Below are positions 1 through 45,508 of a stretch of DNA of 64,000 bases, piece by piece (the first letter of the stretch is position 1; each line of letters starts with the position of its first letter). Origin of the DNA: Cyanidioschyzon merolae. Lineage: Eukaryota. The notes below the pieces were generated by a model that had not been told where the DNA came from, did not search any database, and worked only from the letters and a program-made list of their open reading frames with translations. A program made the translations under genes and the position numbers. Location: assembly GCA_000091205.1 (NCBI GenBank), contig AP006484.2. One strand, written 5' to 3'.

Positions 1-150
1 TCGTTTTCGTCACTTGCTTTCCTTCGCTCGATGGTCAGCGAGAAGAGGATTTTTCCGTTTTTCGTCTGGCACCCGATGATGACGGGCCTCGAGGACCCCC
101 GAATTCCATCTCTATGCCTTCCCCTGCGACCCTTTAATTTCTTCAAAATG
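1..150 (+). repeat. Fragment of dispersed repeat family R, truncated by the window edge
   Basis: Positions 1-100 align by eye with 10775-10880: 'gatggtcagcgagaagaggatttttccgttttt' against 'gattgtcagcgagaagaggactttttcagtttt'. Similarity fades after about 150, where the minisatellite begins. Confidence 0.6.
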
Positions 151-211
151 AACGCACTTCATACACACCTTCTATAAATCACGACAAAGCATTTGATAGC
201 ACGCATCCGCA

Positions 212-1116
212 GGTGAAACACTGTTCAGGTAAACGACTAGAAAACAGATACACCAGTGAAACACGGTTCAGGTAAACGACTAGAAAGCAGATACACCAGT
301 GAAACACTGTTCAGGTAAAGGACTAGAAAACAGATACACCAGTGAAACACGGTTCAGGTAAACGACTAGAAAACGGATACACCAGTGAAACACTGTTCAG
401 GTAAACGACTAGAAAACGGATACACCAGTGAAACACTGTTCAGGTAAACGGCTAGAAAACGGATACCCCAGTGAAACACGGTTCAGGTAAACGACTAGAA
501 AACGGATACCCCAGTGAAACACGGTTCAGGTAAACGACTAGAAAACAGATACACCAGTGAAACACGGTTCAGGTAAACGACTAGAAAACGGATACACCAA
601 TGAAACACGGTTCAGGTAAAGGACTAGAAAACAGATACCCCAGTGAAACACTGTTCAGGTAAACGACTAGAAAACAGATACCCCAGTGAAACACGGTTCA
701 GGTAAACGGCTAGAAAACGAATACCCCAGTGAAACACGGTTCAGGTAAACGACTAGAAAACGGATACACCAGTGAAACACGGTTCAGGTAAACGGCTAGA
801 AAACGGATACACCAGTGAAACACGGTTCAGGTAAACGACTAGAAAACGGATACACCAGTGAAACACGGTTCAGGTAAACGGCTAGAAAACGGATACCCCA
901 GTGAAACACGGTTCAGGTAAACGACTAGAAAACGGATACACCAGTGAAACACGGTTCAGGTAAATGACTAGAAAACGAATACACCAGTGAAACACGGTTC
1001 AGGTAAACGACTAGAAAACGGATACCCCAGTGAAACACGGTTCAGGTAAACGGCTAGAAAACGGATACGCACCAGTGAAACACTGTTCAGGTAAACGGCT
1101 AGAAAACGGATACACG
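212..1116. repeat. 43-bp tandem minisatellite of about 21 units, consensus cagtgaaacacggttcaggtaaacgactagaaaacggatacac
   Basis: Perfectly periodic 43-bp unit read directly. Five variable sites (cacGg/cacTg, aaaCg/aaaGg, cgActag/cgGctag, aaaacAg/aaaacGg, atacAcc/atacCcc) recur in blocks. A small insertion sits near 1065-1070. There are no unique spacers. Confidence 0.9.
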
Positions 1117-1250
1117 AGTACACCGTACGTCAAGCCACGAGTGAGCGCTGTGCACCATGCGCGCCATGGCGCATCGGCTGCGACGCTGGAGCCTATACGA
1201 CTATCATACGGTTTCGAGGCCGTTGTATTCACTGCCTAGCGCAGCTGCGT

Positions 1251-4200
1251 TTGGCAGCTGTCTTTTCATCCGTTATGTATTTATTAGGTGCTAATGACGA
1301 AAGCGAGAAAGTAGACTGCCCCGAAGACGGCAATCAGGCGGCGGCTTTTGTAGGGGTGAACAGCTCGCACTCCCTGGGGAAACAGCGCAAAGCGCGTTGG
1401 CGCTCGTACCGAGCGGTGCGGCGACGCTGGGAGCGTTCCGCAGCACGCGGCTGGGCTCTGCTACTGACCAGCAGTAACCAGAGCATCCAGCGGAACCCCG
1501 AACTGCAGACGGAAGTGAGCTCAGGAGCGCACGAGGTGGAGCTGGGTGGTAGTGCTGGTGCCGGTGTCGACAGTACCGGAACCAGACAGCCTGGCGTCGA
1601 GGAGGTGGCAAAGGCGACTGATGCGGCGAAAAGGGCGGCTGCTTGCAAGAATGATCGCATCGGAGCAGGCCTGGTCGAAGATATTGTTTCTGTGGAAGAT
1701 TCCGAGGCCACCAATGACGCTATCACTCATGCAGGTACCGTAAGCGACAAACGGGTCGTTTCTCGCGATACCGGAACGTGCGCTGGTGTCAGTGCCCTGC
1801 CGCCTCTGCCGCGACTCTCCTCGAAGAATCGTCAACAGCGGTTGCAGTTTGCCCGCCGTTCGATCCTGGTGTCCCGGTCATGGCGACAATGGGAGCCACC
1901 GAACATCGCGCCTGTGGCTAGCGTGGACTCGCTGACGCAACAGCAGATGCCGAGAAGGCCCCAGAGGACATTCATGATGCGTTTGCCTGCACCGCCGCCA
2001 GGCTCGGGGCTGCTACGTTTTCTGCCTGGGTCGAAGCGTGCCGCATATCGACGAGCTGGACATCGTCTGTTTCAGGTCTTCCGCCGTATGCAGCACACGG
2101 CGCCCGCGGAGGAACCCATCTTGCCTTCGAAGGTATCAGACCTAGCGGGTGATCTTGGCCCTGATCCAGAGCATATGAGAGCCAGCATGGGCGACTTTGG
2201 CGTGCAACAGACGTCCACTGAGACGAACGAGAGCACACGAGCATCAGCAACACCAGCATCGCAGACGAAACGCAATACATGGAATCGAACGCAAGGCTCG
2301 CATGCACCCACTCTCCGAGGCCTGAGCCTCCTACCAGCACTCTTTCGTGACGGTAGAGATGGCACTTGCTCTAGTGAGCGTCCGGTTGTGCAGCGAGCGT
2401 TTCACGATCCCCTCCGAGTCACTCGCTTGCGCGCCCGTCGACTGCGTAGACCGTTGCTGCTTGCGTTGCGGGCATCGCTGCTCTCGGTTCAGATCATTTT
2501 TCGGTCGATGATCATGAACTTTCCTGGCATGGCAAGATGGTTGCGGGCACGTCAAGCCGCCCACGTGAACGCTATGATTCGAAAACACGCAGCGATCGCT
2601 TTCCCGATGCTCGAAGAGGTTGAATGCACACAACTGGAGGATGACGGGAGCAGCATCCATTCCGATAACGAATCGGGAGCATGCACGCCTGCGGAGCAAA
2701 TCTGCATCGATGAGGACGGTGTCGCAGAATTCCTGTGTGCAGATGGCCATGTAGACGCATGCCTAGGAAACATTGCCGGTATGGCGAAGAACAACAACCC
2801 CGATACATCTCTGGCATCGCGTGTGCCGTGGCATTCGGATCTTGGTGATCCAGCGCCTCGCCTTACCGGTCCTGGAAAGGCGCAGGTATCGAAACACACA
2901 CAAAGTGAATCCCTCACACAGGTGCTCGATGCAGCAAGCGTGGGCTCTACGGGGAGCGCAAATGCCGCTGCCGCCGCGTCTTGTACGCATCATCCACCCG
3001 CAAGGGCGACATCCTCCCGCGGGACATCACAGGCCCGGTCGAGACGCTTGCTCGAAACAGATTCGCACTCGGCCGACGACGACGACGAGAACGACGAGAA
3101 CGTGAAACTTTTCCATGCCCGACCGTCTGCGTCCCTGCCACACGAAGAGGATGACAAAGATTCCCGAGATCGTTCGAGCTGTAGGGTCAGCACCTTGGAA
3201 CGGCCTCAACCGAAACGAGGCTCGCGACCAAACAAACGCGCGACAGCTGGTGCCTTCAAAAGGACGTTCAACGCAGGATCGTCTTTAAGCGAGACCTCGA
3301 ATGATCATTTTCGGGTCCTGGAGATAGGCGGTGTTTGGACGGAGGTTCTCGTGATCCACTCGAATGCGGCACAAGCGACGCGCGCATCCCCACAGGCCGA
3401 GCGCTTGCCTTCGCTCGGTTGCAAGTCGCTGTCGGTGAGCTCCATGGGATCCTCAATAGACCTGGACGACTGGAAGACGCCCTCGGGGAACGACATGATC
3501 CTCGATGATGGTACGGTATCACCGGGAAACAACCGCATTTCCGTGAACAACGGTGAACCTGCAGCCGCTTTGCATCGGGGATGCAGTGTCTCCCTGGGAA
3601 CAGGCGTGCACCTGGACTCGACAAGCTCGGATGCGCCGACGATGAATGGAATGCGTCGCATCCGCAGCAGCAGCAGCAGCACGCTGCCCTACACACGTAC
3701 GTTCATTCGATCCCAGCAGCACGGTGCGGTAGCGGTATCGCGTTCACAGCCGTCCGCGCAACAAGCACCCAGCGACTCGCAGCGGCATCTCGATACGAGT
3801 AGGAATCCAGTCCAACCGGGGCGTCGTCGCCGGTGTCAGGTTGTGTTCCTACCGGGTAATCCGGGCTGTATCGAGTTGTACGAGTCCTTTCTCCTGCAGT
3901 GCGCAGCGATGCTGGCTCAGGCAGGCAACCCGTCCGTTGAATTCGTCATCCATGGTGTTGGACTCGCCGGGCACGACCTTAGAGGCCTGAATCGCCCCGG
4001 ACGCTTCTTCGACCTGTCCGAACAGACCCGCCACAAACTCGCCTACATTCGGGAACACGTCGGTTGGTCATTCGCCGAGGATTCGAACTACATCAATGAC
4101 GACATCGACATCGACGATAACGAGGACCTCGTCTTGATTGGCCACAGCACCGGTGCACATATCATCTGCCGGATGCTGGAAGCGAGTCCAGCGCTAGCGG

Positions 4201-6865: not shown

Positions 6866-7149
6866 GAGGGTGTACGCAAGTACGTGTTCACCCGTCGCCG
6901 CAGTGCTCCTACCGTGCGTTCCGCACCAAGCGGGCGTTTCGAAGCACCCGCGTTCGCAGCATGAAAACGTGGTGCGCGATCAGCGGCTTCGCCGCCGCCT
7001 TCGATGCTGGATAAAGATGTATTTTTAGGTAGAAAGTGACACTCGCTCCGTTCGTGCGTGTTTGCTGCAGCCATCTTTGCGTTTGTGTCGATCGCGTCGA
7101 TCGATCGTATGCGTACATACACCGACGTGCAGAGGCTTCCCGGCCTTGT

Positions 7150-7450
7150 TCGACCGGCCATCTGTTATCGTTTTCAGCTTCTCGTTGTACATTTCGACCC
7201 GGAGAGGCTGCCTCACCAAGTTCGATCGCGTCAGTTCCTCGGGTCTCGTCTCCAGTACCGCACATCTCCTCGTATTGATGGCAGCGTTCATGCCAAGGTT
7301 CATGAACTCTCTGTGTTCATTGCCACTGGTTGAACACAACCATGGAAGGATTCCTCGAGCACGTACCCTCTGCGCCGTTCGCTGCTCTGTCAGCTCTCCG
7401 TGCTGTTCTACCTCCGAAGCGCTCCGCTGGCTTTTTTCCATCTCGACGCT
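7150..7450 (+). repeat. Partial copy of dispersed repeat family R (5' part)
   Basis: 7161-7330 aligns with 10490-10680 and with the reverse complement of 26700-26990. Examples: 'cgttttcagcttctcgttgtacatttcgacc' against 'cgggttcagcttctccatttacatctcgagc', and 'cctcgggtctcgtctccagtaccgcacatctcctcgtattgatggcagcgttcatg' against 'ctcgggtcccgtcttcagcaccgcacatcgtctgatattgacagtggcgttcaag'. Confidence 0.6.
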
Positions 7451-7708
7451 CTGAAGCGTATACCCTAGCTTATAGAGTATGGTTCAGGTACGGAACTGAC
7501 CTATCGGTGCTGTGACAAAACGATGTGCACGCTCTTTGTACGCTCGTGTCGACGGAGCGAGTATGCTCCCTTTTATGGACGCCCAGCTCGCTGCTCCGTA
7601 TGCTACTACGGGTCTCTGACTCTCGTCCTCCCTCAGGGCGCTCAAGTGATTGAAAAAGTTGGCAAGTGCACGTTACTTCCCTCGGTACAAGTTCACACGC
7701 CAATGAGC

Positions 7709-9352
7709 TCACCGGAACCTGTTGTTCTCTTGCCAAAACGCCTCCCATTGCGCAACCTGAACTTCCACGAACTCCTGAAAAGCTTTAAGGTCCGCTCCAA
7801 GGTTTGTCGCCCCGCTCATCGCTTCGAGGTGATTCTTACCTCCTGTATTCCGCATCTCACATTTTTTCCTTGCATTCATTCGTTCCGACCCTCGATAGTA
7901 GCGCGCGTTCGAGGACTTTCGAAGACGCATGTCGCTCTGGTGTAAGTTGCCGTCGTTACCATCTTGCCCGCGCTTAGGCACAGCGACGATCATGGTATCC
8001 GTGTTCCCAGGGCGTTCCGTGCCGATGACAAAGTCGTTCCCGTGCACGTTGTGCGCCGCAGGGCCCGCCTCCTTTTCATCTTCATGCTTCGCCGAGGGCG
8101 ACAACGACGACCGAACAGGGTGATCCACATTCGAGCGCCGATAGTGTACACCTATGGATACCCCATCGCTTTCGATCTTCCCCGTGAATACCTTCTTCTT
8201 ACTCGTTTTGCGACGTTTGAAATCGAAGATATCCCTCCAATAGGTGTCGCGGTCTTCGCCCGTGAACTCCTCCCTGCTTACATCGAACTCGGGACAGATC
8301 TCCTTCATAATGCCGAAAAGGACGCCAGAATCGATTGTGATAAAGTGTGACTTGTCCTCGCATATCGGAACGACATTGAAGCGCTGCTCCAGAAGCGAAG
8401 CCCTGCGTTCCACTGAATCTTCATTTTCCTCCACGTCCAGCTCCATATCGGCCATGCGTTCGAGCTCTCGATTCAGAAACACGAAAGAACGCAGGATGAA
8501 GGGACAACATCTCTCTTCACCTTTTTTCATCTCTGATACCTTTTCTGTTGGGTTGACCAGCCCCAGTACCGCACGGTGCTCTTGAATTGCCGCACGAATC
8601 ACAGAATCCACATTCGTGCTCGTCCATGATGTCTTCTCGTCGACGAACTCGATCTCCTGGTCATCCCGAGGATCGTTCGTGATGCCATCGATGATGGCCC
8701 ATATTCCTTTGCGAGACAGGCCCGGGCACAGCGCGAAGACGGAGCGTTTCATGAAGCGTTTGAGGTTCATGATCATGTGGTTCTTCAGGTTCGTGACGTA
8801 CTTCATCGCTCCGTAGGTGTCAATCTCTCGGTGGCCCCTGTATCGAGCACCGCTGAAGCGGTATTCGGGGTGGTTCTCATGGAAGGTTCTCACTCGCTCA
8901 TTGCTCGTCGACATTTCCCCTGCGCCAACCATTAGTTGGCGAATGAAAGACACGTGGAAAAATTCTTTCGGAACCTCGACCGTTTTGATGTCGGTAACGT
9001 CGGAGAACAAATCGTTCACGAATTTCGTCAGTCCTAAAGAAGCGTTAAGAATACTACTGGAGTACGACTCGACAGGTTTTCTGATGGACTCTCGCAACTT
9101 TCTCTTGTAGGGTTCCTTGATAGGGCTTCCGAGAAAGGCTTTCACTACGACCTCGTTCTTGTGTCGTCTTTCGAGTTGCATTTGTCGTGAGGCCTCCTGC
9201 TTCTGATACGTCTTCTTCTTCTGTTCATCTGGAGTTGGCACTGGTTTCCGTTGCTTTGTCAAATCCGGCGGCAGGGGGCCTCCAGGATCCTCGAATTTCG
9301 TGTTCATTATTTTTATTTTTGAAAACGAACGCGGTTCGAAAGCGTCTACCAT
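7709..9352 (-). CDS. Hypothetical K/E/R-rich protein of 547 aa in an AT-richer island, possibly derived from a PIF/Harbinger-type DDE transposase (tentative)
   Basis: Intact 547-aa ORF whose composition is more AT-rich than neighbouring genes. '[20 protein letters not shown]' resembles the Harbinger first-Asp block F.C.G.IDGTH. 'FITIDSGV' resembles the second block (L.DSGY). '[11 protein letters not shown]' resembles the third block (ERAFGxLKRRW) but lacks the catalytic Glu. These matches rest on motif memory only and were not searched. The ORF is flanked by R-family repeat pieces. Confidence 0.3.
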
Positions 9353-10379
9353 TAATCACGAAAAACACTTGACTAGACTTGTTTGATGTTCCAAAACTAA
9401 TGAACTGAAAGACTGTACTTGGTTACGACCTCAACGGAAACCCAACTTTTTTCCGGTAGAACAACACGCTACTGATCAAGATCGCGTTTTCCTTCAACGG
9501 AGGCATATGCGTCGTGTCTCATGTCGGCCTGATCTCCCAGATGCGCTCATTTAGCGCAATGCGTGTACCGCGCAAGACGCCTCACCGATCGATGAAGGAC
9601 ACGTGTCCGACGCCCCGCATTGGCACATGCGTGTTTGCATCGCACTGCAGCTGAAATCGGGTGCCGTAGATCGGAAACTCCCGTAGAATGCACTCCTGCT
9701 ATAGGCTATGTCGCTGGTGCCGACGCAAATGCCCATCGCAGTACCGCCCTGACATACATGGAGATGCAAGGGCCTAGCACGATACCCCGCGATGCTTCTA
9801 TCAAAAGCGTATCCATCGCAGTATCCTACGCTCGTGCGGGTGCGGTGTGCATCACTCTACTCAATAGGAATTTCGTCAGTTTTATTGATCGTAAGCAAAC
9901 AAGGCACGGTCTCGTTCCCGAACTCGTATATATGTTTACTCCCTATGCTTGTTATGCACACTGCACGGACGCTGGAACGAGGAACTGACCTGAATTTTGC
10001 TTCTATCCGGCGTCATGGCCTGGTACTGATGACCGTTCAAGTCATTTCCATTCTGCCGTCGTTGTCTAACTTATGGTGCCTGCTTCATCCTCCGGGTCCG
10101 GTGATCTTGGCAGAGGCATCGCACACAAGTAGCGCCCATATCTATCAGTGCGTTTGACCAACGCATCTAGTCTGGCATGATCGAGGCATATGACAAAGAG
10201 CGCATGCTGCATCCTGTTGCACCCTATCGGTTTACTTGCAAGAGCGTACCCTGTATGTAGTGGTGAAATCGCCAAACCGGGAACTTTTTCTGGACCCCTG
10301 CCGAGCCCTATGCTCCCGAATATTCGATGGCTACTTTCTGATTTCGCATTCCCAGTAGTAATACAGTAGAACATACGGA

Positions 10380-11900
10380 TTTCTTTCTTTCTGTACGAAT
10401 GAACACACACTAGGGTCAGTATGGAACGAAATGGTGCCACGACCATAGAGCGCATATATAAACTCACTTGCAGACGCCTCCAAAACTTTTTTGACTGGCC
10501 CTCTGGACTCGGGTTCAGCTTCTCCATTTACATCTCGAGCATGACACAATGCCTCTTAAAGTTGGATCTCGTCAGCTCCGTGGGTCTCGTGTTCAGCATC
10601 AAACTTTGTCTGATATTGATGGCGGCGTTAAAGTCTCGGTTCACGAACTCTACACGTTTATGGTAGCTTCTTGAACTCACCTTTGCTGAGATTCATCGAA
10701 CTCGCGCCCTCTGAGCCACTACAGTCTCGCTATCGCCACGTCGCGCAAACACTTTCTCTCGCCTATCTCTCATCGTTATAATCTTCTTGCTCTTTTTCGC
10801 TTGATTGTCAGCGAGAAGAGGACTTTTTCAGTTTTTGTCGGAGCTGGCGACTCCGGGTGCCCAAAACCCTCGACGTCCATGTTCATAACTTTCTCCTCGC
10901 TTTTTTATTTCCGGAAGCGAACGTACTTCTCTATGCCCTTGGGCGACGACCTTCCCAGAGCGAGAAGGACTTTCGCAAGAATGACGACATGTGCCCCGGT
11001 GTGTCGAAGTGTGCTGAACGCTTCAGCGATTCGCACAGTGGAGCGCTCATTACGTTTTACAATTTGGAACGCTTCTTCGATGGGCTCGAAAATTACACCG
11101 TTTGGAAGAATGGAAAGTAACTTTATCGAGATAGACTCGGCAAAAGCCCAAACGCAAGCAGAACGGTGGGAATGCCATGTTGTCCAATAGAAGAGCATCG
11201 CCAGACGTCAGCGGCAAAAGTCTTTAATGATTCGACGAAGTGGTTGGCGCTGTTGTACGTGCCTTCTCTACCATCGAAACTGAAGCCGCCAGACGAATCC
11301 GCTGCGCCTAGAACAGATGATTTCGTCGTTCTCTTCCCGTTGGTTCGTACATAGAATGATCTTCCCCACCGCGAATACCCATGTACGATCCGACCTTTTC
11401 GTGCGAAGGATGTCTCGTCACCTGAAAAAATGAACCGATGCCCCTGTGCTTCATATCGAAAGTGACGCTCCAGGAACGCTGTCGTTGCGATTTCGGTGGA
11501 AGATGTCCGTGAATGAAATAGAAATCTTTTTTGCGACTGTATCCAAGTATTTTCAGGACCACAACAACAAGCTGTTTAGAGGCAGAGACACCTGTTGTGG
11601 CTATTACCGTCGCTTTCGCTCTCCGTAAGGTGCTCAAAGGGTCGTTCTGTGCAATTGACCACGAACCGTCTTTGAGAATATCGGTTTTTGCAACGGAGCG
11701 CATATACTTGTTTCTTTCAGTGCTCCGCAACCGTCTGAGTTCTATGGTATCATTGACCTGAAGGAGGCATGCAGTCTTCATGCACTGTCCAGTAAAGAGC
11801 ATACATCTAACAGGCAATTCGTTTACGATCTATACGGTACATCGCAAAGTAATTTCTTCCTCGTGCTGCACCCGGCAGCGCAAGTGGAACAGAATTGAAT
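10380..11900 (+). repeat. Long copy of dispersed repeat family R, about 1.5 kb, ending roughly 240 bp upstream of the J-domain gene
   Basis: Aligns along its whole length, at roughly 75-85% identity by eye, with the reverse complement of 25600-27080. Examples: 'gacgacatgtgccccggtgtgtcgaagtgtgctgaacgcttcagcgattcg' against 'gacgacatgtgccccagtgtgtcgccgtgtgcgaaacgcttcagcgattcg'; 'aatgattcgacgaagtggttggcgctgt' against 'aatcattcgacaaagtggttggtactgt'; 'gctccaggaacgctgtcgttgcgatttcggtggaagat' against 'ttccagaaacgctgtcgttgcgatatctgtagaagat'. Weaker similarity extends to about 10250. Confidence 0.75.
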
Positions 11901-12142
11901 TCGAAAGACACCATGCACGTACACACCTGAGCGAACTGACACCGAAGCGCGGCGTGTTGCTATCAAACTCGTGAGACTCGGGCGCGTTTCTGCTTTAGCG
12001 GCGGTCTCTTGACGGTGCTTTGGCAGCGCGGACGCAACTGAGGGAGTCTGGTTCGACTTACTGGTGTTTCTGCAGTCGAGAAACGCCAACGAAATCTGGT
12101 TCGGCGTAAAGCGCTGCGCGCTGTGTTTTTATGATGTCCTGA

Positions 12143-22222: not shown

Positions 22223-25200
22223 CTAGCTAAACTGCTCAACAAGCAGCTCCCAGGTTCCAGTTTCAGCATCATAACTAACGAAACGTGCGCCCTGCTGCTC
22301 CGCGTATTCTTGTAATCGTTGCCGAAATCGTTCAATCGCTTGTGGATCATTCGTTGGCTTTCCGGTTCGTTTGTCCATACGGAACACCTGCTCAAAACGC
22401 AAGAGCGCCCTTCGATTCAGGCCCTGTCCCGGGGGCGGGAGACCACTCCATCGATCGGACCTGGATGGCTGTTGTTGTTGTTGTTGCTGCTGCTGCTGCT
22501 GCTGAGCAGTCGTGCGGGTGCCTTTCGGCGGCATCGCGTCAGTATCGCGGGTCGGGTACAGGATGATCGTGCGCGGCTCAATCTGCACAATTTGATCCAG
22601 ATTGGCGTAGCGTAAATCCACCGGCTCCAGGAAACGAATTTCGGCAATGTGGCGACGGCCTAGTACAAAGTTAGAGACATGGGAGAGTGCTGCTTCATCA
22701 AGGGACTGAAGCTCGGCGAGCGGCGGTTTCGTATAGTACCCTGGTTTCGTGAGTCGCGGCACCCAAGCTGGCAATCGATCGCCCTGATCGGACGTTGAGG
22801 CTCCTGACGACACCGGTCCCTGTGCGTGGTACTCGAAGTGCGCACCTGGCGTCTGCTCGGAGCCTGGTGTGGCCGCTGACTCTTTTCCGGAGCGCTTCTC
22901 CGTACCCTGGCTACTGCGCAGTGGTACGATGGGTGACATGTCGGCAGCAAATGAAGGCGTTACGGTACCAGGAGCGTCGACGTTGGTGGCACGTGTTCGC
23001 TCCGGAGACGCATCCCGATCCAGAAGGTTTGCGCTCGGGCTCGCCAGCACTGCTTCCTGCGTGGTAATATCGGCGAGCGTCAATGTCGGTTCGGTTTGTC
23101 CTTGTGCGGCTGCGTCGCGGATCAGCTGCCTGATGCTTCGTTCTGGTTTGCCATTCTCGGTCTGGCGCAGGCGTCCGGGTGTCCATACGCTCGACCAGGA
23201 ATCGCCTGGCGTCTGATTCGGACGACCCCGGGCGACTGCTCGAGGTCGGTCAAACAACTCATGGAGCGGGACGCCACCAATGGAGGCTCCGTATGAGAAG
23301 GCTCGCACTTGACTTCTGGGCCGAACTCGATAGCTCGTCACGGGCGCGTTTGGTATCGATGCTAGTGGGGCCAGCAGCGACGCATGCGTGGTATCTAGCA
23401 CAGGCTCCGAGGTGACTCGAGTCCCTTGCCATCGCTCCGCATCAGTGGAGATGTTGCCCGCAGCGCCCGAGAGTGTCGGCAGCGGGCCGTACGGCGATGC
23501 GCTACTGGCGTTGCTTGCAGGCTGCGTTTGAAACGGAATCCCCTGCGGAGAAGCGTTCGTGGCAGCACCGAAGGCAGGCATCGCACCACTGCCACTACCA
23601 CCACCGAGGCCAAAACCTAGTCCAGACGGCATTCCAGTACTCGTAGCCGGCTGCATAGGACCCATATTCGCATTTGGGCTCGCCAAGGGTCGGAATGCTG
23701 ATCCCCCAAGACCGAACATGCCCCCAGAAGTTGAGGCACCGCCGCCAGGCTGTGTGCCGCCTAGGTTCGACCCACTCGATGACACTCCAAAGCGGAATAA
23801 ATCCCCAGTCGGCTTCGCACTCGTCTGGTTCGCTGCTCCGAATATGCCAGTTTGCTCCGAACGAGGTGTACTTGCGTTTCCTGACTGAAACGCGGGCGCT
23901 CCGCCTGCAGTCACCGTAGTGCTCCCTGTGCCAAAGAGGCCACCGGTACTGGTGCCGCTCTGTGCGGCACCAGCACCGGTTGATTGTCCACTTGGCTGAT
24001 TCGCTTGCGCTGCACCAAATCCGCCCAAACTAAATCTCGGAAGCGAGCTCTGTGCGCTTGGTGCTTGACCAGGCTGGCCACCAGTACCACCACCGCCTCC
24101 AATACCACTGCCACCAGCACCGAAGCTGCCTGCCGTACCCGGTGCGCCGCCTCCAACCAGGCCCGCCGACTGCGTGGATCCGCTGCCGCTTCCGCCGAAA
24201 AACGACCCGGGCGCGTTGCCTCCGAGACCGCCTCCGAACGATGGCATTGTATTGCTGAGACTACTCGTATTCTGGGTCGCGTTCAGCGTACCGAATGATG
24301 TTCCAGTGCCCAGCGGCCGCGATCCACCGAAACCGAGGCCACCGCTTGCAGGCGCACCGACAGTGCCTGACGTAGGAAAAGCGCCCGAGGTGCCCAGTGC
24401 TGCACTTACCGCTGGCTGATTTGTATTTGATCCGGCGCTCGCTCCAAAGCTGCTGAAAGCACCGGTCGTTGATCCAGGTGCACCAGCAAAGGGTGAAGGT
24501 CGGGCATTTGCGTTCGATCCAAACAAACCAGAGCCAAAGGGCGCATTCCCAGCACCCGTTCCGCTCCCTGCTTGATTGGATCCGAATGATGTCGTAGCAG
24601 AGGACCCGACACCACCGCCAAAGAGGCCGCCTGACTGACCCGCGTTTTGTCCAGGGATACCGAATCCCGTACCAGAACCTGTGGCGTTTGCATTCCCGAA
24701 ACCACCAGCTGAGGGTGCCGACCCAAATGCACCCCCAGTACTCCCAGCGGATGTGTTTTGTTGTTGTCCGAATGTCGTTCCCGAGATCGCCGATGCACCA
24801 AACGGGGAAGCGGCTCCTGAGGTACCAGCGTCACTGCGGAAAAGACCGCTGGGAGCAGTCAAACCGGTCGATGGCTTTGCTGCACCAAAAAGTCCTGTGT
24901 TCGTTGTGGAGGAACTGCCAAGGTTTCCAAAGAGCGAGCCACCACCCGTTCCGCTGGGTGCTGAACTACCTCCAGGGCCGCTTTGCCCCCGGTTACCCAG
25001 CTGGTAGTCTTCGAAACGGAGTTCCTCGAAGCTCTTCGATTCGAACCCGCTCATAAACACGATCGAATCGAAGAGTACCTGTTTGGTTCCGTGTGCCGTT
25101 GTTTCTGAGCTTGGTACTGGCCGAAAAGCCACCTGACCAGTGCCCTGGCTCGGTGCGGCACCCAGAGCAAGAGGCTGTGACCCTGAGGTGCCCGCTTGCC

Positions 25201-25546
25201 AGGCACTACCGCTTCCGGAGAGCGCACCCCCGCCAGCAGCGGCACCGGGGGCTCCGGTCACACCCGGGCGCAACCCGCCAGAAAACGAAGCACTCCCAAA
25301 AGGACTTGACCCGAAGGTGCTTGATGTGTTCGCGTTGCCCCCGAAAGGACTCATTGACGCTGAGCCCGTGTTTGGGCCTGGTTGTGCCGCTGGCCAGCCG
25401 CCAGCCTGGCTCAGCGCTGTTTGGGTGCCCGGCTGGCTCTGTGTGCTAAACAGCGACTGTGTTGGGGTTTGTGTCGGTGGATTTGCCCCGAAAGCACCCG
25501 CCAGTTGGTTATTCGACGGCTGCGTAGACGCGTTTCTACCGAACAT
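22223..25546 (-). CDS. GLFG-repeat nucleoporin of the Nup98 / Nup116 / Nup100 family, 1107 aa, ending at its C-terminal autoproteolytic-type (Nup98-APD) domain with no Nup96 portion
   Basis: The N-terminal two-thirds carry dense FG, GLFG, SFG and FGxxxFG repeats ('GLFGAAKPSTGL', 'GGLFGGGVGSS', 'SLFGNLGSSS'). The C-terminal approximately 150 aa, '...YYTKPPLAELQSLDEAALSHVSNFVLGRRHIAEIRFLEPVDL...TGTWELLVEQFS*', match the Nup98 autoproteolytic domain fold. The ORF stops right after QFS. A polyQ run is encoded by the CAG/CAA array at 22465-22507. Confidence 0.8.
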   Translation of the reverse strand: MFGRNASTQPSNNQLAGAFGANPPTQTPTQSLFSTQSQPGTQTALSQAGGWPAAQPGPNTGSASMSPFGGNANTSSTFGSSPFGSASFSGGLRPGVTGAPGAAAGGGALSGSGSAWQAGTSGSQPLALGAAPSQGTGQVAFRPVPSSETTAHGTKQVLFDSIVFMSGFESKSFEELRFEDYQLGNRGQSGPGGSSAPSGTGGGSLFGNLGSSSTTNTGLFGAAKPSTGLTAPSGLFRSDAGTSGAASPFGASAISGTTFGQQQNTSAGSTGGAFGSAPSAGGFGNANATGSGTGFGIPGQNAGQSGGLFGGGVGSSATTSFGSNQAGSGTGAGNAPFGSGLFGSNANARPSPFAGAPGSTTGAFSSFGASAGSNTNQPAVSAALGTSGAFPTSGTVGAPASGGLGFGGSRPLGTGTSFGTLNATQNTSSLSNTMPSFGGGLGGNAPGSFFGGSGSGSTQSAGLVGGGAPGTAGSFGAGGSGIGGGGGTGGQPGQAPSAQSSLPRFSLGGFGAAQANQPSGQSTGAGAAQSGTSTGGLFGTGSTTVTAGGAPAFQSGNASTPRSEQTGIFGAANQTSAKPTGDLFRFGVSSSGSNLGGTQPGGGASTSGGMFGLGGSAFRPLASPNANMGPMQPATSTGMPSGLGFGLGGGSGSGAMPAFGAATNASPQGIPFQTQPASNASSASPYGPLPTLSGAAGNISTDAERWQGTRVTSEPVLDTTHASLLAPLASIPNAPVTSYRVRPRSQVRAFSYGASIGGVPLHELFDRPRAVARGRPNQTPGDSWSSVWTPGRLRQTENGKPERSIRQLIRDAAAQGQTEPTLTLADITTQEAVLASPSANLLDRDASPERTRATNVDAPGTVTPSFAADMSPIVPLRSSQGTEKRSGKESAATPGSEQTPGAHFEYHAQGPVSSGASTSDQGDRLPAWVPRLTKPGYYTKPPLAELQSLDEAALSHVSNFVLGRRHIAEIRFLEPVDLRYANLDQIVQIEPRTIILYPTRDTDAMPPKGTRTTAQQQQQQQQQQQQPSRSDRWSGLPPPGQGLNRRALLRFEQVFRMDKRTGKPTNDPQAIERFRQRLQEYAEQQGARFVSYDAETGTWELLVEQFS

Positions 25547-25599: not shown

Positions 25600-27080
25600 G
25601 GTGCGGTGCATAGCAGTCGATTCGCTTTGGTGTGTGCACGATGCCGAACAGAATGTAGACGAATCGCCCTCAGGATCTATATTGTTTACTGAATAGTGTA
25701 AGGAGTACTGCATCTCTGATTCGGGTCAGTCGCACCACAGTACTCAGATGGTTGAGGAACTCTAAAAGAAAGAAGGATATGGGCTCTGTGCCAAAAAACT
25801 GGTATGCTCTATAACTGCTTTCGGTCTATTGTAGAGAACGACTTTTTGATCACCTGACAAAAAGCGAAAAAGCGAAGATTATAGATGCCATGAGCGTCTC
25901 TGTTTCTCAATAGCTTGTTCATGGGGCCTCAAAACGCTGGGACACAGTCGCCGAGAAAATGTCCTAGTTCACATACGGCTATCTTCTACAGATATCGCAA
26001 CGACAGCGTTTCTGGAACGTTGCGGTCGGTATGAAGCAGAGGTAAGCCAGTTTATTTTCACAGACGATGAGACATCCTTCGGACGAAACGGTCGGATCGT
26101 AGATGGGTATTCGCTGAGAAGGTGCGCGTTCTGTGTGCGATCGAACTCGAAGAGAACGACGACATCATCATCTGTTCTAGGAGGAGTGGATTCGTTTGGC
26201 GGCCTCGGTTTCGCTCGTGGAGACGGCGCATCCTACAGTACCAACCACTTTGTCGAATGATTGAAGGGTTTTCCCTGGCATCTGGTGACGTTCTTCTATT
26301 GGAGAACGCGGTATATCACCATTCCCTTGCGATGGAGCTTTCGCCGAATCTATCGGGATCGAGCTGCCTTTCATTTGTCCATACGATCCGTGGTTCAGCT
26401 CCATCAAAGACGTGTTTTTTATGTTGAAAAGTAATAATCGCCTCGGTGACCGAATCGCTGAAGCGTTTCGCACACGGCGACACACTGGGGCACATGTCGT
26501 CTCTCTTTCGAGAGTCCCTCCAGCTTCGGAAAGTTTCTCACCTCGGAGCAGAGAGAAGCGCATTCATTTTCAAGAAATAGAACAATCCAAGGGAAGGTTA
26601 TGGACATGGAAGTCGAGGATGCTGGAGCGCCGTCATCGCCGGGTGCATGAAAGAAACGAAAAGTAATCTCCTTCTCGTCGACCATCCCTCGGAGAAGAGC
26701 AAGTGAAGAAGAATAAAAAGAAGATAGATACGCGAGCAAAGTTGTTTGCCCAACGAGATGATGACGAGACTGGCATGGTACAGAGGGCGCGAATTCGATG
26801 ACTCCTTGCACGGAGGAGTTTCACCAGCGGCAATAAACGCCAGGAGTTCATGAAACGAGACTTGAACGCCACTGTCAATATCAGACGATGTGCGGTGCTG
26901 AAGACGGGACCCGAGCATCTCTCGCGACCAACTTCATGCGGCAGCCTCGCAAACTCGATGTGTTCAGGAAGAAGCTGAAACCGGTATTAGGGGGCCAATC
27001 AAAATAGCCGGGAGGCGCCTGTGCGTGTTTCTTCATATCCACTCCATGGCCGTGGGACATTTTTTGTTTCTCTGATCACA
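25600..27080 (-). repeat. Long copy of dispersed repeat family R in inverted orientation, ending roughly 55 bp upstream of the Nup98-like start codon
   Basis: The reverse complement aligns with 10380-11900 (examples in that feature's evidence). The 5' part also matches 7150-7450. Weaker similarity extends to about 27130. Confidence 0.75.
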
Positions 27081-28484: not shown

Positions 28485-31400
28485 ATGGTTTCATCACCCG
28501 CGATTCAGGTTTCTGCTGTCCAAAGAAACGTTGAAAGTGGTTGGCGGGCACCCACAGGCTACTCTGACTCAGAAGACACTGATGACGGGAAGGATGAGCG
28601 CCTTTTTCGCTCAGGTCCGCGACGGATCGAGGTGCCATCAAGTAGCGAGAGCGAAACATCGACCTCGCCGCCGTCAAAGCTTGCTCGATCGACACCGTCT
28701 GCGTCGAGTGCCTCTACAGATGGGATAACTGCTGGTGCAGGTGTGGATGAAGAAGGAAACGAATCGGATTACGTCGCACCAGGTGTTTCCTTTTCTCGTT
28801 TAGCACGACGATACACGCTTGCTAGGTCCTGGCTACCCGGTGTGCACCGTGCCCTCTTCGCAACGCCCGATGAAGCATTCGGAGCTCCCTCGACGGACAC
28901 GCCCATGGATATGAAACAGCATAATCGCTCCGTAGCGCGGACCCAGAGACCCGAGTCGCGTCACATACAGGCTACCGATGGAACCGGGGACCGCGCTGCA
29001 GCTGAGCGTTTAGAGCCGCTCGACGCGGCAACAGCGGCAACGCTGCAGCTGCTGCAGTCAAGCACGTCAACGGAACTGGGTGAACAACGTGAGCTGCATA
29101 AAGCAGTTGAGTTGTCGCGCAAATCCCTCATAGCGGATACCGCAAGCATGCATGCTACTGGGCAAGTATCCGACGCATTTCGCTCGCGGATTACGGAACA
29201 GACTCGCGCTCCGTCGCTTCTTGCGTCCGAAACGAACGTTCAAGTTGTTTCGGTGGCGGGCACTTCACCGAGAACGGCAGTTCTTCGATCCTTGGATCAA
29301 CTTCTTGAAGAGCGAATGCGTGGACTGGATATCGCCACAGCTTTCATGCCCATGGCTCGCGTCATAGGTCCTCTCGTGTTTGCGAATGGAGGCGGGCCTG
29401 AACGCAGCGCGAAGCGCGCTGCTTGTGGGGTCGTATACCCTTCCATGAAGATGTGGACGCCTTCGAAAGGCACCGCTGATCGGTCAGAGCTTCATCTCGG
29501 CCTGGTTCGTGTTGCAGACGACGCCGCAATAGAGGCATCCGTACACTGCGAGGCGACCAGCCGCTACCAAACACTCGGTGAAGCACTTGCCACGGGAAAT
29601 CGGCGCCATGATTTTTTCCAGGAACTGGTTACTCGCTACAGGACACAAAAGGATGAGCACGGTGAGATTGTTGCAAGCTTGTTGGACGCCCTGTATGGTG
29701 ATCACGCTGGAGCTGCATCAACATGGTATAGGTTTTCAGCATGGCTGAGGGATTGTGCCTGCCCCAAGATGCAGAGCGTAGATGAATTTCGAGACGATTG
29801 GCAACATGCGCGTGCCGTTTCTGCGGTTTCCGCTGCATCCGACGGGCAAGCACTCGACGAAGCGCTTTTTTTGCTATCCGGAGGCCAGGTGCTGGCGGCA
29901 GCGCAGCGGCTGCAAAAGGCCGGCGACTTGCGCCTCGCACTCCTTTTGAGTCGCTGTCTGGACCCGCATGAAGACTTGGCATTGGATGCGGCGAATCAAG
30001 TGGAAACGTGGGAAAACGATGGCCTTTCTGAAAAAACGCTTGGAGCGCGCCGTCTTGATCTCATGTACTTGTTAGCAGGCCAAGTACAGCGTGCTTCTGG
30101 TCATGCCCTCGTGTCAATGGATGAACCGCCTTGGTTCTGTGGACCGCATTTGACGTGGATACGGGCCTTTGCCTTATTTTTTTGGTACGCACGCATGGAT
30201 GCCAGTAGACGGGACGCTCTGCAGGGATCCATGGATGCCACTGCCGGTGCCGCTGATACGAATGATTCGTGTACCGACGCATACGCGGATGACGTGCGCT
30301 TCCGTATGCGGCTTAGCGCTGCGCTAGACGCCTACGAGACAGCCTGGAAGGCGGCGATGCACTTACGTAGCCGCAGTCGCGACCTAGATGATGATGAGGA
30401 GCAGGACGAGCACGAGGACGCGGAGGATGCGGTGCGACCGTCGGCAACAAGGTCACCGCGATCATCACCACCGGCGATGCACGCATCCTCTAGATCGCCA
30501 TCACCGATTCCCAGATCGCCTAGATCGCCTAGATCGCAGCTACGTGCATCCTCTAGATCGCCTAGATCGCCTAGATCGCCTAGATCGCCTAGATCGCCTA
30601 GATCGCCTAGATCGCAGCTGCGTGCATCCTCTAGATCGCCGTCACCAATGCCTAGATCGCCTAGATCGCAGCTGCGTGCATCCTCTAGATCACTGAGGGC
30701 GGTAGCGGCTGCGTCACTCGCCCGTGTGCCACCGCCGCTGCCGCCGGCCCTGGATCGTGCGCATCGCAGGGGCGAGCTGCGGCAGCTGCCGCTCACTGCA
30801 GATGAGGCAGAGACGGGGCCCGAGGATCGCGTCACCACCCTAGCGGTATTCGATGCTGTCTATGTACTCTTGCGGTGGTATTGTCTTTCGCCTACGTTCT
30901 GTAGCAGGCGTTATCAGCTTATGCCAGAGTGCTTTGGTCTTCACAAGAGTGACTCTTTGGATTTCCGGCTTGTGTGGTTGCTGTGGGAGTGCATAGGCAG
31001 CGGCGCATGGGTATCCGTGCCTTTTGACTGGATTGATCCGCTTCTACGAGCACAGTGCTACGAGGCGTATGCGTTGCAGCTTGAGTCTGCCGGGAGGCCG
31101 CTCGAGGCAATCTACGTTCGGGCGACGCTCAGTCGCGGATCGGATCTGCTCCAGTATCTGTGCTATCTGTGGCCGCGTCTGCTTCGAGAAAATGTCCCCG
31201 ACTGGCCTGTTTCGTTGCCTGTTGCAGGTGAGTTGCGAGGATCAGGACCCAGTTCGGAGGCTTCGTGGTCAACGGTGCGCACTGCCGCTGACATCGACTC
31301 GCTGCCGGTGATGCGTTGGCTCCGAGAGCGCGTCCGCCTGCCGCGGTGCTGGCTCCTGCAGGCACACTACCAATGGCTGGAGTTTGCGCTTGTGGCGGCG

Positions 31401-32435
31401 TTGTCGGATCTGGAGCATAGCGGGTCTCTGGCTGCTGGCATCTGGGATCCGCGGAAACTTGTATACGCGGCAGAGCTTGGTTGTGCCCTGCTCCAGACGG
31501 GAATCGCCTGGCTTGGAGCGTCGACCGCTCCACTAGGTCGTCTAAGAACGGGATCATTCGAGGCGGCTTGCGAGGACGCGGTGACCCCAAATGATGCCAT
31601 GGATACCGAGTTGTCGCATGACAACACGGACGGGTCCTTGTCAGCGTTTAACCATGCTGCACGCGTTGGGCTCGGTCCGCGGACCCGACTCATGATGCAA
31701 CTTCACCTCTGGGCTGCAGTGAGACTCGCGCCTCTTTTCCTCCTACAGCGTGGTATCGCCGGCTCGAGCGCTTGGAGCGGCGCGTTTGCTTCTCGAGAGC
31801 ACGCAATGCGTCTAGCGAACGACTGGCGTCAGATGCTCGAGGCATTTCAAGCGCTCGAAGCGGCAAGTTCCAGTCATCTGACTGTACCATCGCCGACACA
31901 GGCGCATGATTTGACGTTTTCGGACCTCGGCGGCTTGTTATTGGATCTGATTGCGGTCAGAGAGCACCTGGGGATGACGCTCCGCGCGGACGGCGTCGAA
32001 GTGGAATCTCCTCTGGATCTGCCGGTAGCAACGCTTTATCAAAGACTGCAACTCGTCGAAGAGGTTCGTGGGAGCCGCTTCGACATCTCATGGATTTTGC
32101 GTTTCTGTCAGCGGGTGTTGCGTTTTGCGGAAACGCAGTCGATTCCTTCTTGTCGCGGTACGCCGGCACTGTCATTGTTGGTGTATCACATTGCAGCAGT
32201 TGCTGGCCGACTGCTCTGTTTCAGTCTGATCCACGGCGACGCGTGGTCAGTGCTCGAGGATCCTGCAGATCGATCTGCGGCTCTGACTCGAATTCGAGGC
32301 CTGCTCGACGTGCTGCCGCTTCTAGAGGGAGATCGTCACCTGCTCTGGAGCGAACTAGAGTTTGCAGATGTAGCGTCCATGCGACAGAACCAGCGCTGGA
32401 TATTGCGAGACCCGCTGCGCGCGCTTCGTTTCTAG
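28485..32435 (+). CDS. Large hypothetical protein of 1316 aa with an internal Arg-Ser-Pro repeat region
   Basis: Uninterrupted ORF. The region 30480-30700 encodes 'RSPSPIPRSPRSPRSQLRASSRSPRSPRSPRSPRSPRSPRSQLRASSRSP...'. No catalytic domain was recognised. The start codon is uncertain because the N-terminus begins inside a low-complexity region. Confidence 0.5.
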   Translation: MVSSPAIQVSAVQRNVESGWRAPTGYSDSEDTDDGKDERLFRSGPRRIEVPSSSESETSTSPPSKLARSTPSASSASTDGITAGAGVDEEGNESDYVAPGVSFSRLARRYTLARSWLPGVHRALFATPDEAFGAPSTDTPMDMKQHNRSVARTQRPESRHIQATDGTGDRAAAERLEPLDAATAATLQLLQSSTSTELGEQRELHKAVELSRKSLIADTASMHATGQVSDAFRSRITEQTRAPSLLASETNVQVVSVAGTSPRTAVLRSLDQLLEERMRGLDIATAFMPMARVIGPLVFANGGGPERSAKRAACGVVYPSMKMWTPSKGTADRSELHLGLVRVADDAAIEASVHCEATSRYQTLGEALATGNRRHDFFQELVTRYRTQKDEHGEIVASLLDALYGDHAGAASTWYRFSAWLRDCACPKMQSVDEFRDDWQHARAVSAVSAASDGQALDEALFLLSGGQVLAAAQRLQKAGDLRLALLLSRCLDPHEDLALDAANQVETWENDGLSEKTLGARRLDLMYLLAGQVQRASGHALVSMDEPPWFCGPHLTWIRAFALFFWYARMDASRRDALQGSMDATAGAADTNDSCTDAYADDVRFRMRLSAALDAYETAWKAAMHLRSRSRDLDDDEEQDEHEDAEDAVRPSATRSPRSSPPAMHASSRSPSPIPRSPRSPRSQLRASSRSPRSPRSPRSPRSPRSPRSQLRASSRSPSPMPRSPRSQLRASSRSLRAVAAASLARVPPPLPPALDRAHRRGELRQLPLTADEAETGPEDRVTTLAVFDAVYVLLRWYCLSPTFCSRRYQLMPECFGLHKSDSLDFRLVWLLWECIGSGAWVSVPFDWIDPLLRAQCYEAYALQLESAGRPLEAIYVRATLSRGSDLLQYLCYLWPRLLRENVPDWPVSLPVAGELRGSGPSSEASWSTVRTAADIDSLPVMRWLRERVRLPRCWLLQAHYQWLEFALVAALSDLEHSGSLAAGIWDPRKLVYAAELGCALLQTGIAWLGASTAPLGRLRTGSFEAACEDAVTPNDAMDTELSHDNTDGSLSAFNHAARVGLGPRTRLMMQLHLWAAVRLAPLFLLQRGIAGSSAWSGAFASREHAMRLANDWRQMLEAFQALEAASSSHLTVPSPTQAHDLTFSDLGGLLLDLIAVREHLGMTLRADGVEVESPLDLPVATLYQRLQLVEEVRGSRFDISWILRFCQRVLRFAETQSIPSCRGTPALSLLVYHIAAVAGRLLCFSLIHGDAWSVLEDPADRSAALTRIRGLLDVLPLLEGDRHLLWSELEFADVASMRQNQRWILRDPLRALRF
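30487..30700 (+). repeat. In-frame 9-bp tandem array (agatcgcct)n encoding (RSP)n, interrupted by three copies of a longer unit 'agatcgcagctgcgtgcatcctctagatc'
   Basis: Read directly from the sequence: runs of 'cctagatcgcctagatcgcctagatcg...' interrupted three times by 'cagct[a/g]cgtgcatcctctagatc'. Confidence 0.85.
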
Positions 32436-35492: not shown

Positions 35493-36202
35493 GCACCTGA
35501 GGCGTACTCGCCAAGCACAGCTCGTCTGAATCTAGCACCCATTTCCGACGGGAAATGTAGTTTGGTGGCTACGGTACGCAGTAGCGTTCTTGAAGAAACT
35601 GAGGTCTACGGTGTCTCCTCTGGTAAACCTGGCGCAACAGAGGAGTTCCGATTACGTTTCAACTTCATTAGCCATCAGAGAGCACCGGTTGCATGCTGTG
35701 GCGCAGGTACTGCCCGACGTGTGAAAGGTGGACGTTTTCGTGGGCCATGTGTTTGCCGCTCTGCAAACTGGCACATCTCAGAGCGCCCAAACGCAAACGA
35801 ATCAACGATCCGCCAGTGAGTTCGGTGGTCTGCGATCCATCCTTTGGATACGCATACGCGAAGTATGCGTTTCACCCGGTCACTTGATTCGCAGACAGTA
35901 CTTCAGACACATCGATATTGTGCGATAAAGAAAGCGCTTCTGCTCGTTATATTCTAGCAAGCATACTCCGCGTGTACGACTGTAGCGCTTCTGCTCCTCA
36001 GTAGAGCGGGTACGCGTGTCCGCGCTCCTTTTCCACGCCAGCGCCGGGACTCGGCGGCCCGCAGCAGCGCTCTCGGTAGGCCGAGTGGTGCGAGCCGTCT
36101 GGCGTCGACGCTGCCGCATTCGGCATCGCAGCGGCACCTGGGATACGCCCCAGCAGGTGTGCTTTCTGTGTGTGTTTGTGACGAACTCTGAGAAGTGTCA
36201 TC

Positions 36203-36640
36203 ATGGCTGGTAACGGCGGCGAAACGGACCGTTACACTTGGACACAGACCCTTCAACAGGTGACTGTGGTCCTCAAGCACGACATTGCACAGAAACGAGA
36301 CCTCAAAGTCTCGTTCGACACAAATCGACTGCAGGTGCTCTACGGAGACAGCGTTCTGCTCGACGGCGAGTTGCATCGTCCGATCAAGCCTGGTGAGTCG
36401 CTTTGGTACTTGGAGGGAACCAGTCTGGTTCTGGAGCTGGAAAAGTCGAACAATATGGAGTGGTGGTCTCGGGTGCTCGTTGGAGACGCCGAGATCGACC
36501 CGTCCAAGTGCGAGCCCGAAACAAGTCGGTTGTCGGACCTTGACGGCGAAACGCGGCAGCTCGTCGAGAAAATGATGCTCCAACAGCGAGCCCGAATGTT
36601 TGCGGAGAGAGCACCTGGGAGTGGTGCGCCCGGGCCCTGA
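36203..36640 (+). CDS. NudC-family / CS-domain (p23-like) protein of 145 aa
   Basis: 'YTWTQTLQQVTVVLKHDI...LKVSFDTNRLQVLYGDSVLLDGELHRPIKPGESLWYLEGTSLVLELEKSNNMEWWSRVLVGDAEIDPSKCEPETSRLSDLDGETRQLVEKMM' follows the NudC C-terminal CS-domain pattern (Y-W-Q-T, W-L-ED, NMEWW, SKLSDLD-ETR). Confidence 0.7.
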   Translation: MAGNGGETDRYTWTQTLQQVTVVLKHDIAQKRDLKVSFDTNRLQVLYGDSVLLDGELHRPIKPGESLWYLEGTSLVLELEKSNNMEWWSRVLVGDAEIDPSKCEPETSRLSDLDGETRQLVEKMMLQQRARMFAERAPGSGAPGP

Positions 36641-44286: not shown

Positions 44287-45508
44287 TACCACGCTGATTC
44301 GCTGCTTTCACTCTATATCTTTGAGGTAAGGGGCAGGCTTCTGTCACGCGGATTCCGCATCCCGCCGGCAAGTAGCCGCTTTGGCAATGGTTGTCCTCGG
44401 TTGCGAGCCATTGTACGTCTGCACTTTGGGTATCTGCCTGTGTGATTTTCTGATGCTTGAACAGGTCACCATTGTGTGCTCGCTTCTGCTGCAAAGATCG
44501 AACGAGCTGTGGAGCAAGAGCGGGTGTCCGCATCGGTTTTGCACAACGGCCATGAACTGGCATCTTTGACGCAATCCACGCACTGGATAGGCATCCACTT
44601 GTGGGTCTAAGTCTTCTGAGACGGACTTGTCGTCGTCGCTGCCATCATGATCATCATACGAATGGACTTGAACAAAGTATCAATTACCTTCGATGAGAGG
44701 TCTTGTTGTTCAGGCGAGTCAAGAGTCGTTTTCACATACCAGTGTGTGTCCCGGATTGCACCATGTTTATCGACATTCGGGAAAGCGTCCGTCATACTCC
44801 ATTACCCAGGCGTGCTGTTCGAGACGGGCTTCTCTACAGCGCTGAACCATAGAAAAAGCGTTTCCATGATGGATGGATACGAGCGGCTCCCGCAGTGCGC
44901 AGCCCATTGAAAAAACTTGCTTGTTTGCGCTCTATGCTTTCTTTTTCGAGCACGAGGTTACAGAGGGCCTCATAACACCCTGGCGTGACGTCGATCCTGG
45001 ATGGAACGCGTTCGGGCTTGGGCGTTGGGTGTTTTGAAGCGGACGAGTGTCTCCAGTCGGTTATCGTCCGTTGGTGCTGGCTGGTGAGGCGGTTTGTTTT
45101 TCTTGTTGCGCCTCTCACGCACGCTGGCACCGTTTGCCTTGCGGTCGAGAGTACGTTCTCGCCTTTGAATGCAACTTGAGTCTTGTAATCAAGTTCTTGG
45201 ACACGACTGTTGAAGCAGTTTGGTTGTCGCAGCTGTCGAACTTGTGCAGTGTCGTCGAGCAGTTCCCCAGTGGCGTTTCCCGCGTATCAAAGGACTGCTG
45301 CTCGAACCTGCGGCTGAAAGAAAGCGTCTGTCGCTTTTCTCACCGAAGACTGTAACCTAGAACCGTTGCCAGAAACAGCATCACCCGCCAGACTTCGAGA
45401 CGGGAGTTGTCACGCACATTGCAGTCGACAGCCAAGGCAACTGCTGCACTGGTGGTCTAGAAGAGACGGTGCAGCGGCCCTGACGCGCTCTTCAAGCTGC
45501 CGACCGCG

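Follow-up and report, generated by a model that had tools for sequence, protein, structure and literature searches.

When intact, Fanzor1 proteins act as double-strand DNA endonucleases guided by an omega-RNA. This RNA is a transcript of the element's end region and may overlap the final codons of the open reading frame (ORF) (Saito et al. 2023, PMC10432273). In Cyanidioschyzon merolae, one Fanzor1 family has been described, designated CMe-1A, with a length of 3169 bp and ~150 copies that each have ~80% identity with their consensus (Bao & Jurka 2013, Mobile DNA 4:12, PMC3627910). CMe-1A has no terminal inverted repeats (TIRs), its target-site duplications (TSDs) were left undetermined and the family unclassified, and its 5' 635 bp are common with TE-N2_CMe (PMC3627910). 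The locus studied here lies in a stretch of 64,000 nucleotides from chromosome 2 of C. merolae 10D (contig AP006484.2, hereafter the window), in which an AT-richer island at 7000-12100 contains a 547-aa ORF on the minus strand. In the initial annotation this ORF, flanked by pieces of a repeat called R, was said to weakly recall PIF/Harbinger transposases, and could be part of an old, partly degraded DNA transposon, a domesticated transposase such as a HARBI1-like gene, or a lineage-specific gene in a repeat-rich pocket. With a probability of about 95%, this island is interpreted here as two old insertions of the CMe-1 Fanzor1 family, arranged head to tail on the minus strand, of which the downstream copy is dead. 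The family is already known from exactly this genome, and the copy in the window is a decayed variant of it.

The relationship to the described family is seen at both the DNA and the protein level. Using the CMe-1A consensus from the supplement of Bao & Jurka 2013 for direct comparison, positions 7121-9534 of the window (minus strand) could be aligned with consensus positions 671-3092 with 77.2% DNA identity over 2430 bp. The 547-aa ORF is present with an ATG start as initially annotated, and is open, but it does not represent a complete gene, since beyond its TGA the frame runs 228 codons further, down to 7025, through three stops. When translated with read-through, this frame is collinear with the published 734-aa CMe-1 protein, with 62.5% identity over 733 aligned positions, and contains the stretches VVAYGAA, GQFRT* and NLGMNAAIN, the latter two of which are the signatures that mark RuvC-II and RuvC-III in TnpB/Fanzor nucleases. 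Using the ORF as a query, 43 relatives were obtained. The closest relative listed is a 98% identical protein from a Joint Genome Institute (JGI) metagenome, encoded on a syntenic contig, followed by ~30 fragments at 45-60% identity and by full-length relatives of 600-680 aa at 24-36% identity, with which the read-through translation could be aligned over its entire length. A tblastn search with one of these relatives, P0031, covered 9274-7202 with an E value of 1.8e-125. Another, weak tblastn match at 36200-36376 (E 0.01-0.015) was not seen again with the consensus protein, a more sensitive query, and was dropped as chance. The window copy and CMe-1A have in common the genome, the protein family, the lack of TIRs, the multi-copy nature and a strong divergence, and they differ in that the window copy has a different ~720-bp 5' module, an unrecognisable last ~77 bp and three premature stops, and has lost all three catalytic residues.

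Assignment to Fanzor1 is supported by profile and fold comparisons. A profile built from 11 relatives matched only Fanzor1 entries in the PDB, with E values of 4.4e-13 for Parasitella Fanzor1 (PpFz1) and 4.3e-9 for Spizellomyces Fanzor1 (SpuFz1). For the fold comparison, the intact relative P0031, which is 36% identical to the window ORF, was modelled in place of the window copy itself. Its AlphaFold model has a predicted local distance difference test score (pLDDT) of 78 and a predicted template modelling score (pTM) of 0.69, and agrees with the bilobed Fanzor1 fold, in which a RuvC domain is joined to an N-terminal REC/WED half. In a Foldseek search of the PDB with this model, the best seven matches were all Fanzor1 (E 4e-17 to 8e-15, template modelling score 0.49-0.67), followed by Cas12f (E 1e-4) and Fanzor2 (E 2e-3). 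Intact members of the C. merolae family have profile-level similarity to the solved Fanzor1 structures of SpuFz1 (8gkh/9ce*), Parasitella parasitica PpFz (9cf*) and Guillardia theta GtFz (9cer), the same predicted fold, and the RuvC motifs D..PG, EFRT and RD.NAA.NI in common with them, although the identity in the structural alignment is only 11-16% and the window copy is inactive. With bacterial TnpB (IS200/IS605, IS607; OMEGA nucleases) and Cas12f, the family shares the RuvC nuclease core. As with TnpB, the gene lies at the 3' side of the mobile element, and the deletion derivatives in C. merolae keep the 3' end. However, the C. merolae element is without a TnpA transposase, its protein is about twice as long and has a large N-terminal half, and the Pfam TNB/zinc-ribbon match stays below threshold. 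The protein of the 547-aa ORF is hence classified as a TnpB-type RuvC nuclease of the Fanzor1 group by descent and not as a transposase.

By contrast with its intact relatives, the window copy bears substitutions in the whole catalytic triad. Relatives and the consensus retain D/E/D, whereas the window copy has E (with an additional inserted R), Q and G at the same positions, and therefore it belongs to Fanzor1 by descent and would not be functional. The frame is cut by three nonsense mutations, so that the first 547 codons alone stay open, and the uninterrupted ORF of about 600-750 aa that characterizes Fanzor1 is not found in this copy. Orthologous metagenome copies L001-L005, which are 98.5-99% identical and have the same flanking genes, share these stops and the catalytic substitutions. 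Among the sister-strain copies that reach the start, three of four have ATA or ATT instead of the ATG start codon, and an extra stop at codon 523 is present in one sister-strain copy. Nei-Gojobori ratios of non-synonymous to synonymous differences per site (pN/pS) are 0.63-0.83 in the 547-codon part, based on just 13-25 differences. In the tail they are at least 1.2 in four of five comparisons, the remaining value of 0.32 coming from the truncated L004 with two differences. The pattern among strains fits neutral or nearly neutral drift and not a maintained gene. The window copy is accordingly judged dead from its sequence, and predicted to be capable of none of the Fanzor activities.

The limits of the downstream element were drawn from how far paralogous copies of 76 metagenome loci extend along it, and the coordinates of all features are collected in the table. 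The initial annotation described R pieces on both sides of the ORF in the same orientation. Their similarity was confirmed, with 68.4% identity between 7111-7376 and 10452-10717 over 266 bp, but they are not a flanking pair, as the first piece belongs to the very element that bears the ORF, being its 3' end, and the second is the 3' end of a separate element upstream. This upstream R element matches CMe-1A only at consensus positions 888-969 (window 10824-10910) and 2840-3093 (window 10461-10711), and its protein content is limited to the last ~60-90 residues, with an intact-looking NRDFNAAINI. From these two shared stretches and the residual C-terminus, it is considered an internally deleted, non-autonomous relative with a 5' module of its own. 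The three R copies of the window keep consensus positions 869-969 and 2832-3093 behind their own ~1-kb 5' module, with 71% identity over 1436 bp by blastn between 10429-11844 and 27062-25639. Further R relatives are found in loci L030, L047, L051 and L055.

Table. Features of the CMe-1-family locus and of related copies; positions refer to the window unless a metagenome locus (L number) is given
Feature	Position	Strand	Remarks
Full-length decayed CMe-1-family Fanzor1 element	7111-10255	-	limits from paralogous-copy coverage
Decayed Fanzor1 reading frame	7025-9352	-	775 codons in one frame; three internal stops and a final stop
547-aa ORF	7709-9352	-	ATG start; N-terminal ~70% of the Fanzor1 frame, ending at premature stop 1
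RuvC-I remnant GTERPG	8006-8023	-	family G[AVC]DPG[NR], consensus GADPGN; catalytic Asp to Glu, with inserted Arg
Premature stop 1 (TGA)	7709-7711	-	Trp position of the family; common to all orthologous strain copies
Premature stop 2 (TAA)	7673-7675	-	Gln/Lys position of the family
RuvC-II remnant GQFRT	7487-7501	-	family DEFRT; catalytic Glu to Gln
Premature stop 3 (TGA)	7484-7486	-	family Ser/Thr after the RuvC-II glutamate
RuvC-III remnant NLGMNAAIN	7274-7300	-	family NRDFNAAINI; catalytic Asp to Gly
First R piece	7111-7376	-	3' end of the Fanzor element itself: last ~90 codons and tail
Non-coding 5' module, variant	9535-10255	-	in place of the first 670 bp of the consensus
R element (second R piece)	10415-11876	-	~1.46 kb, non-coding, internally deleted relative; upstream of the Fanzor copy, in head-to-tail order
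Second R element	25639-27062	+	between the Nup98 and Nup96 genes
R copy at the left window edge	6-221	-	cut by the window edge
Stacking site, window	10256-10414		before the variant 5' module
Stacking site	L068:1-498		before the variant 5' module
Stacking site	L042:650-1065		before the variant 5' module
Stacking site	L066:960-1365		before the variant 5' module
Stacking site	L069:700-1118		before the variant 5' module

The 5' ends of the CMe-1 family are modular. Most other copies carry the canonical module of the consensus, and the ~720-bp variant module of the window copy recurs with 75-81% identity in L068, L042, L066, L067, L069, L049/50, L012, L011, L057 and L048. Stray pieces of the canonical 5' module are also present in dips of G + C content (GC) elsewhere in the window, at 38173-38350 and 44749-44801. 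Four loci, and likewise the window, have the 3' end of another, non-coding member of the family at a distance of 30-160 bp before the variant module, a pattern which suggests head-to-tail stacking of family members. The lower GC of the island, which had been recognized correctly, amounts to 50.6% in 7000-12100 as compared to 57.5% in the remaining window, or per kb to 48.5-53.1% as compared to 56.5-63.7% in the flanking genes. This is due to the composition of the CMe-1 family itself, whose CMe-1A consensus has a GC of 52% against ~58-62% in host genes. The AT-richer stretch is accounted for by the two elements and a 160-bp spacer.

Several alternative explanations of the ORF have to be weighed against descent from Fanzor1. 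A degraded or domesticated PIF/Harbinger (HARBI1-like) DDE transposase has only the visual resemblance of three short blocks in its favour. These strings are real and were located in the ORF: FALCPG at aa 206-211 (8720-8737), AIIDGIT at aa 219-225 (8678-8698), ITIDSGV within HFITIDSG at aa 336-343 (8324-8347) and the third block at aa 373-382 (8207-8236). They are conserved Fanzor1 positions, however, read from the family alignment as non-catalytic stretches of the N-terminal half, and the FxTxD core of HFITID (F306, T308 and D310 of P0031) is invariant, even in relatives of 24-28% identity. Pfam scans were made of the 547-aa ORF and the ORFs downstream of it, of the frame read through its stops, of the family consensus and of the ORFs in R elements; no match exceeded the threshold, and none was to a family of transposases. 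In particular, no Pfam family of any kind matched the ORF at E<=1, and DDE_Tnp_4/Plant_tran and other DDE transposases found no match with the read-through frame and the consensus at E<=10. TIRs were not found either: the only inverted pair at the island (25 nt, 72%) is internal and unrelated to the ends, and a repeat finder applied to 6.5-12.5 kb, whose exact seeds missed the diverged R pieces detected by blastn, revealed neither TIRs nor pairs resembling long terminal repeats. As to the 3-bp TWA TSD of PIF/Harbinger, the comparison covered seven complete canonical copies from other loci, which have T-run flanks and no duplication of fixed length. With homology to Fanzor1 over the entire frame, in sequence as well as in fold, the Harbinger explanation has practically no chance of being correct. 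All that the locus has in common with PIF/Harbinger and HARBI1 is an origin from a mobile element, with another fold and another catalytic chemistry. What holds of the earlier proposal is the degraded mobile element, with a protein of a different kind. Its mobile origin is also in keeping with the nuclease-family match and with the 293 related loci revealed by a scan of metagenome contigs, in place of a single-copy syntenic orthologue with no nuclease match.

The remaining alternatives concern the ORF as a living gene. That the gene is intact, its apparent stops being removed by introns or read through, would agree with the position of all three stops in frame with the rest of the protein. But the residues on either side of each stop align gap-free to the family, leaving nothing to splice out in a genome with ~27 introns, and the three catalytic residues were lost independently of the stops, so that next to no credence can be given to it. 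A HARBI1-like domestication is not supported, in view of the same stops and catalytic losses, of the lost start in three of four sister-strain copies and of the pN/pS values. Co-option of a catalytically dead Fanzor fragment (the REC/WED half), for example as an RNA- or DNA-binding regulator, is slightly better placed. The ORF is long for a relic of ~51% GC, its pN/pS is below 1 and its syntenic position is kept in several strains. On the other hand, pN/pS from so few differences does not come near what constrained genes show, the start codon and codon 523 have been hit in sister strains, the ORF is not included in the annotated C. merolae proteome, and the same piecemeal decay affects most of the ~80 paralogous copies. 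Co-option is thus held to be highly improbable, and a decayed Fanzor1 element is retained as the explanation of the ORF.

Some observations nevertheless weigh against the Fanzor1 interpretation as given. The local Pfam copy does not recognize the family above threshold, with only a sub-threshold Cas12f1-like TNB domain, and hence the assignment rests on the profile-to-PDB, fold and literature comparisons. For the TNB/OrfB zinc-ribbon (PF07282), the distant relative P0042 reached 25.9 bits as compared to the cut-off of 26.3, and the CMe-1 consensus and the metagenome copy L019 gave E values of 0.2-0.5 over the last 11 profile positions only. The label PF26935, precomputed for many homologues among P0004-P0039, had no match for the same proteins in the local copy. 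Furthermore, the pN/pS of the 547-aa ORF stays below 1, with the small number of differences given above. The window copy is not a textbook CMe-1A, lacking the first 670 bp of the consensus, for which no match was found at this copy, and its last ~77 bp; therefore it is placed in a variant subfamily. Finally, the omega-RNA receives little backing from structure tests. RNAalifold on 21 copies gave -5.9 kcal/mol with 3 covarying pairs, covariation in the consensus-derived structure over 26 copies was not above that of shuffles, the 3' end of the window copy folds no better than shuffles (z -0.58), and Rfam had no match. The 3' 266 nt of the consensus have a folding z of -2.5. Beyond sequence conservation, these tests thus gave no support for an omega-RNA structure. 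Counting covariation by columns fails because the terminal hairpin sits in different registers between copies.

In terms of mechanism, characterized Fanzor1 proteins combine a RuvC nuclease with an omega-RNA made from the 3' end region of their own element, and cut guide-matching double-stranded DNA beside a short target-adjacent motif. The downstream element (~7111-10255) would once have encoded such a protein of ~730 aa, a eukaryotic relative of bacterial TnpB, and the upstream R element (~10415-11876) is a non-coding relative with an internal deletion, which keeps ~90 bp around the ORF start and the last ~260 bp. By homology and fold, and as intact C. merolae members conserve the triad, RNA-guided cleavage may be expected of them, and the literature would place an omega-RNA in the 3' end that is kept. 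Retention of precisely the last ~260 bp by the deletion derivatives is compatible with a 3' end that acts in cis, as scaffold of an omega-RNA or as signal for transposition.

A detailed survey was made with 80 loci fetched out of the 293. Nearly all of them are fragmented, and a full ORF with all three catalytic motifs was found in only one of the 80 (L019). This copy, from a hot-spring metagenome, has an uninterrupted 722-aa ORF at L019:3351-5519 with all three RuvC motifs. As the sole such copy in the survey, it may represent an active Fanzor1 from a hot-spring Cyanidioschyzon-like genome.

The mode of insertion was addressed tentatively with related metagenome copies; the window copy itself lacks these termini. 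The canonical 5' end (CGATGACAAAACG...) is preceded by a T run in 16 independent copies, including L081, L053, L027, L025, L022, L064 and L054. In these 5' flanks, T occupies position -2 in 16/16 and position -3 in 15/16, and its share is 70% in -8..-1 as compared to 20% further out. At the other end, T follows immediately after the 3' end in all seven complete canonical copies, which show no constant or fixed-length TSD. The T-run flanks may reflect a target motif, or else the T run could stem from the poly(A), since decayed, of a retroposon in antisense orientation. Related Chlamydomonas Helitron2 elements insert between TTTT and T/C without TSDs (Bao & Jurka 2013, PMC3627910). CRe-1/2/3, the Fanzor1-carrying non-autonomous Helitron2 elements of Chlamydomonas reinhardtii (PMC3627910), resemble canonical CMe-1A in this T-run insertion without a fixed duplication, but differ in that asymmetric TIRs are inconsistent in CMe-1A and such termini are lacking in the window copy. 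The consensus ends in a 3'-terminal hairpin, and a 10-bp inverted match links its positions 5-14 with a site that lies 62 nt from the 3' end. Of 200 shuffles, 2 did as well, yet four of the seven real copies have nothing of this kind. In L044, the 5' terminus (L044:430-445) has a 15-nt inverted match with one mismatch to a site ~59 nt from the 3' end, reached by 0/200 shuffles; L022, its sister copy, agrees with L044 in the 3' end and differs from it in the 5' end. It could be envisaged, although this is rather unlikely, that the CMe-1 family is Helitron2-like or inserts into T runs by another single-strand or rolling-circle route, with a terminal signal and the omega-RNA both located in the last ~260 bp, in which case the T-rich 5' flank would double as the target-adjacent motif.

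Discovery value of this locus is small: a description of Fanzor1 elements from this very genome dates from 2013, and one of their nuclease activity in other species from 2023. In annotations, a Fanzor1 pseudogene should be masked at the place of the 547-aa ORF, which is neither a gene nor a Harbinger relic, and the R repeats can be filed as deletion derivatives of the same Fanzor1 family. The modular 5' ends, the kept 3' ~260 bp, the T-run flanks and the intact 722-aa copy could help to classify the element or to reconstitute a Fanzor from a thermo-acidophile.

The rest of the window carries ordinary nuclear genes on both strands and without introns, as seen in Pfam scans of the long ORFs. Five ORFs, among them CMB122C and CMB124C, are identical to annotated C. 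merolae 10D proteins, and the Pfam-named genes encode Nup98, Nup96, a protein kinase, ATP-citrate lyase, a Cdc48-like AAA ATPase and a DnaJ protein. When the window was scanned for Rfam families and for tRNAs, neither had a match. Two further GC-dip stretches, at 38824-39169 and 50405-51073, recur at 64-73% identity in several metagenome loci and are probably other repeat families. Nup98 and Nup96 usually derive from one Nup98-96 precursor gene. Here, Nup98 (22223-25546, minus strand), which ends in its autopeptidase domain, and Nup96 (28485-32435, plus strand) are separate and divergently oriented genes, with the R element at 25639-27062 located between them.

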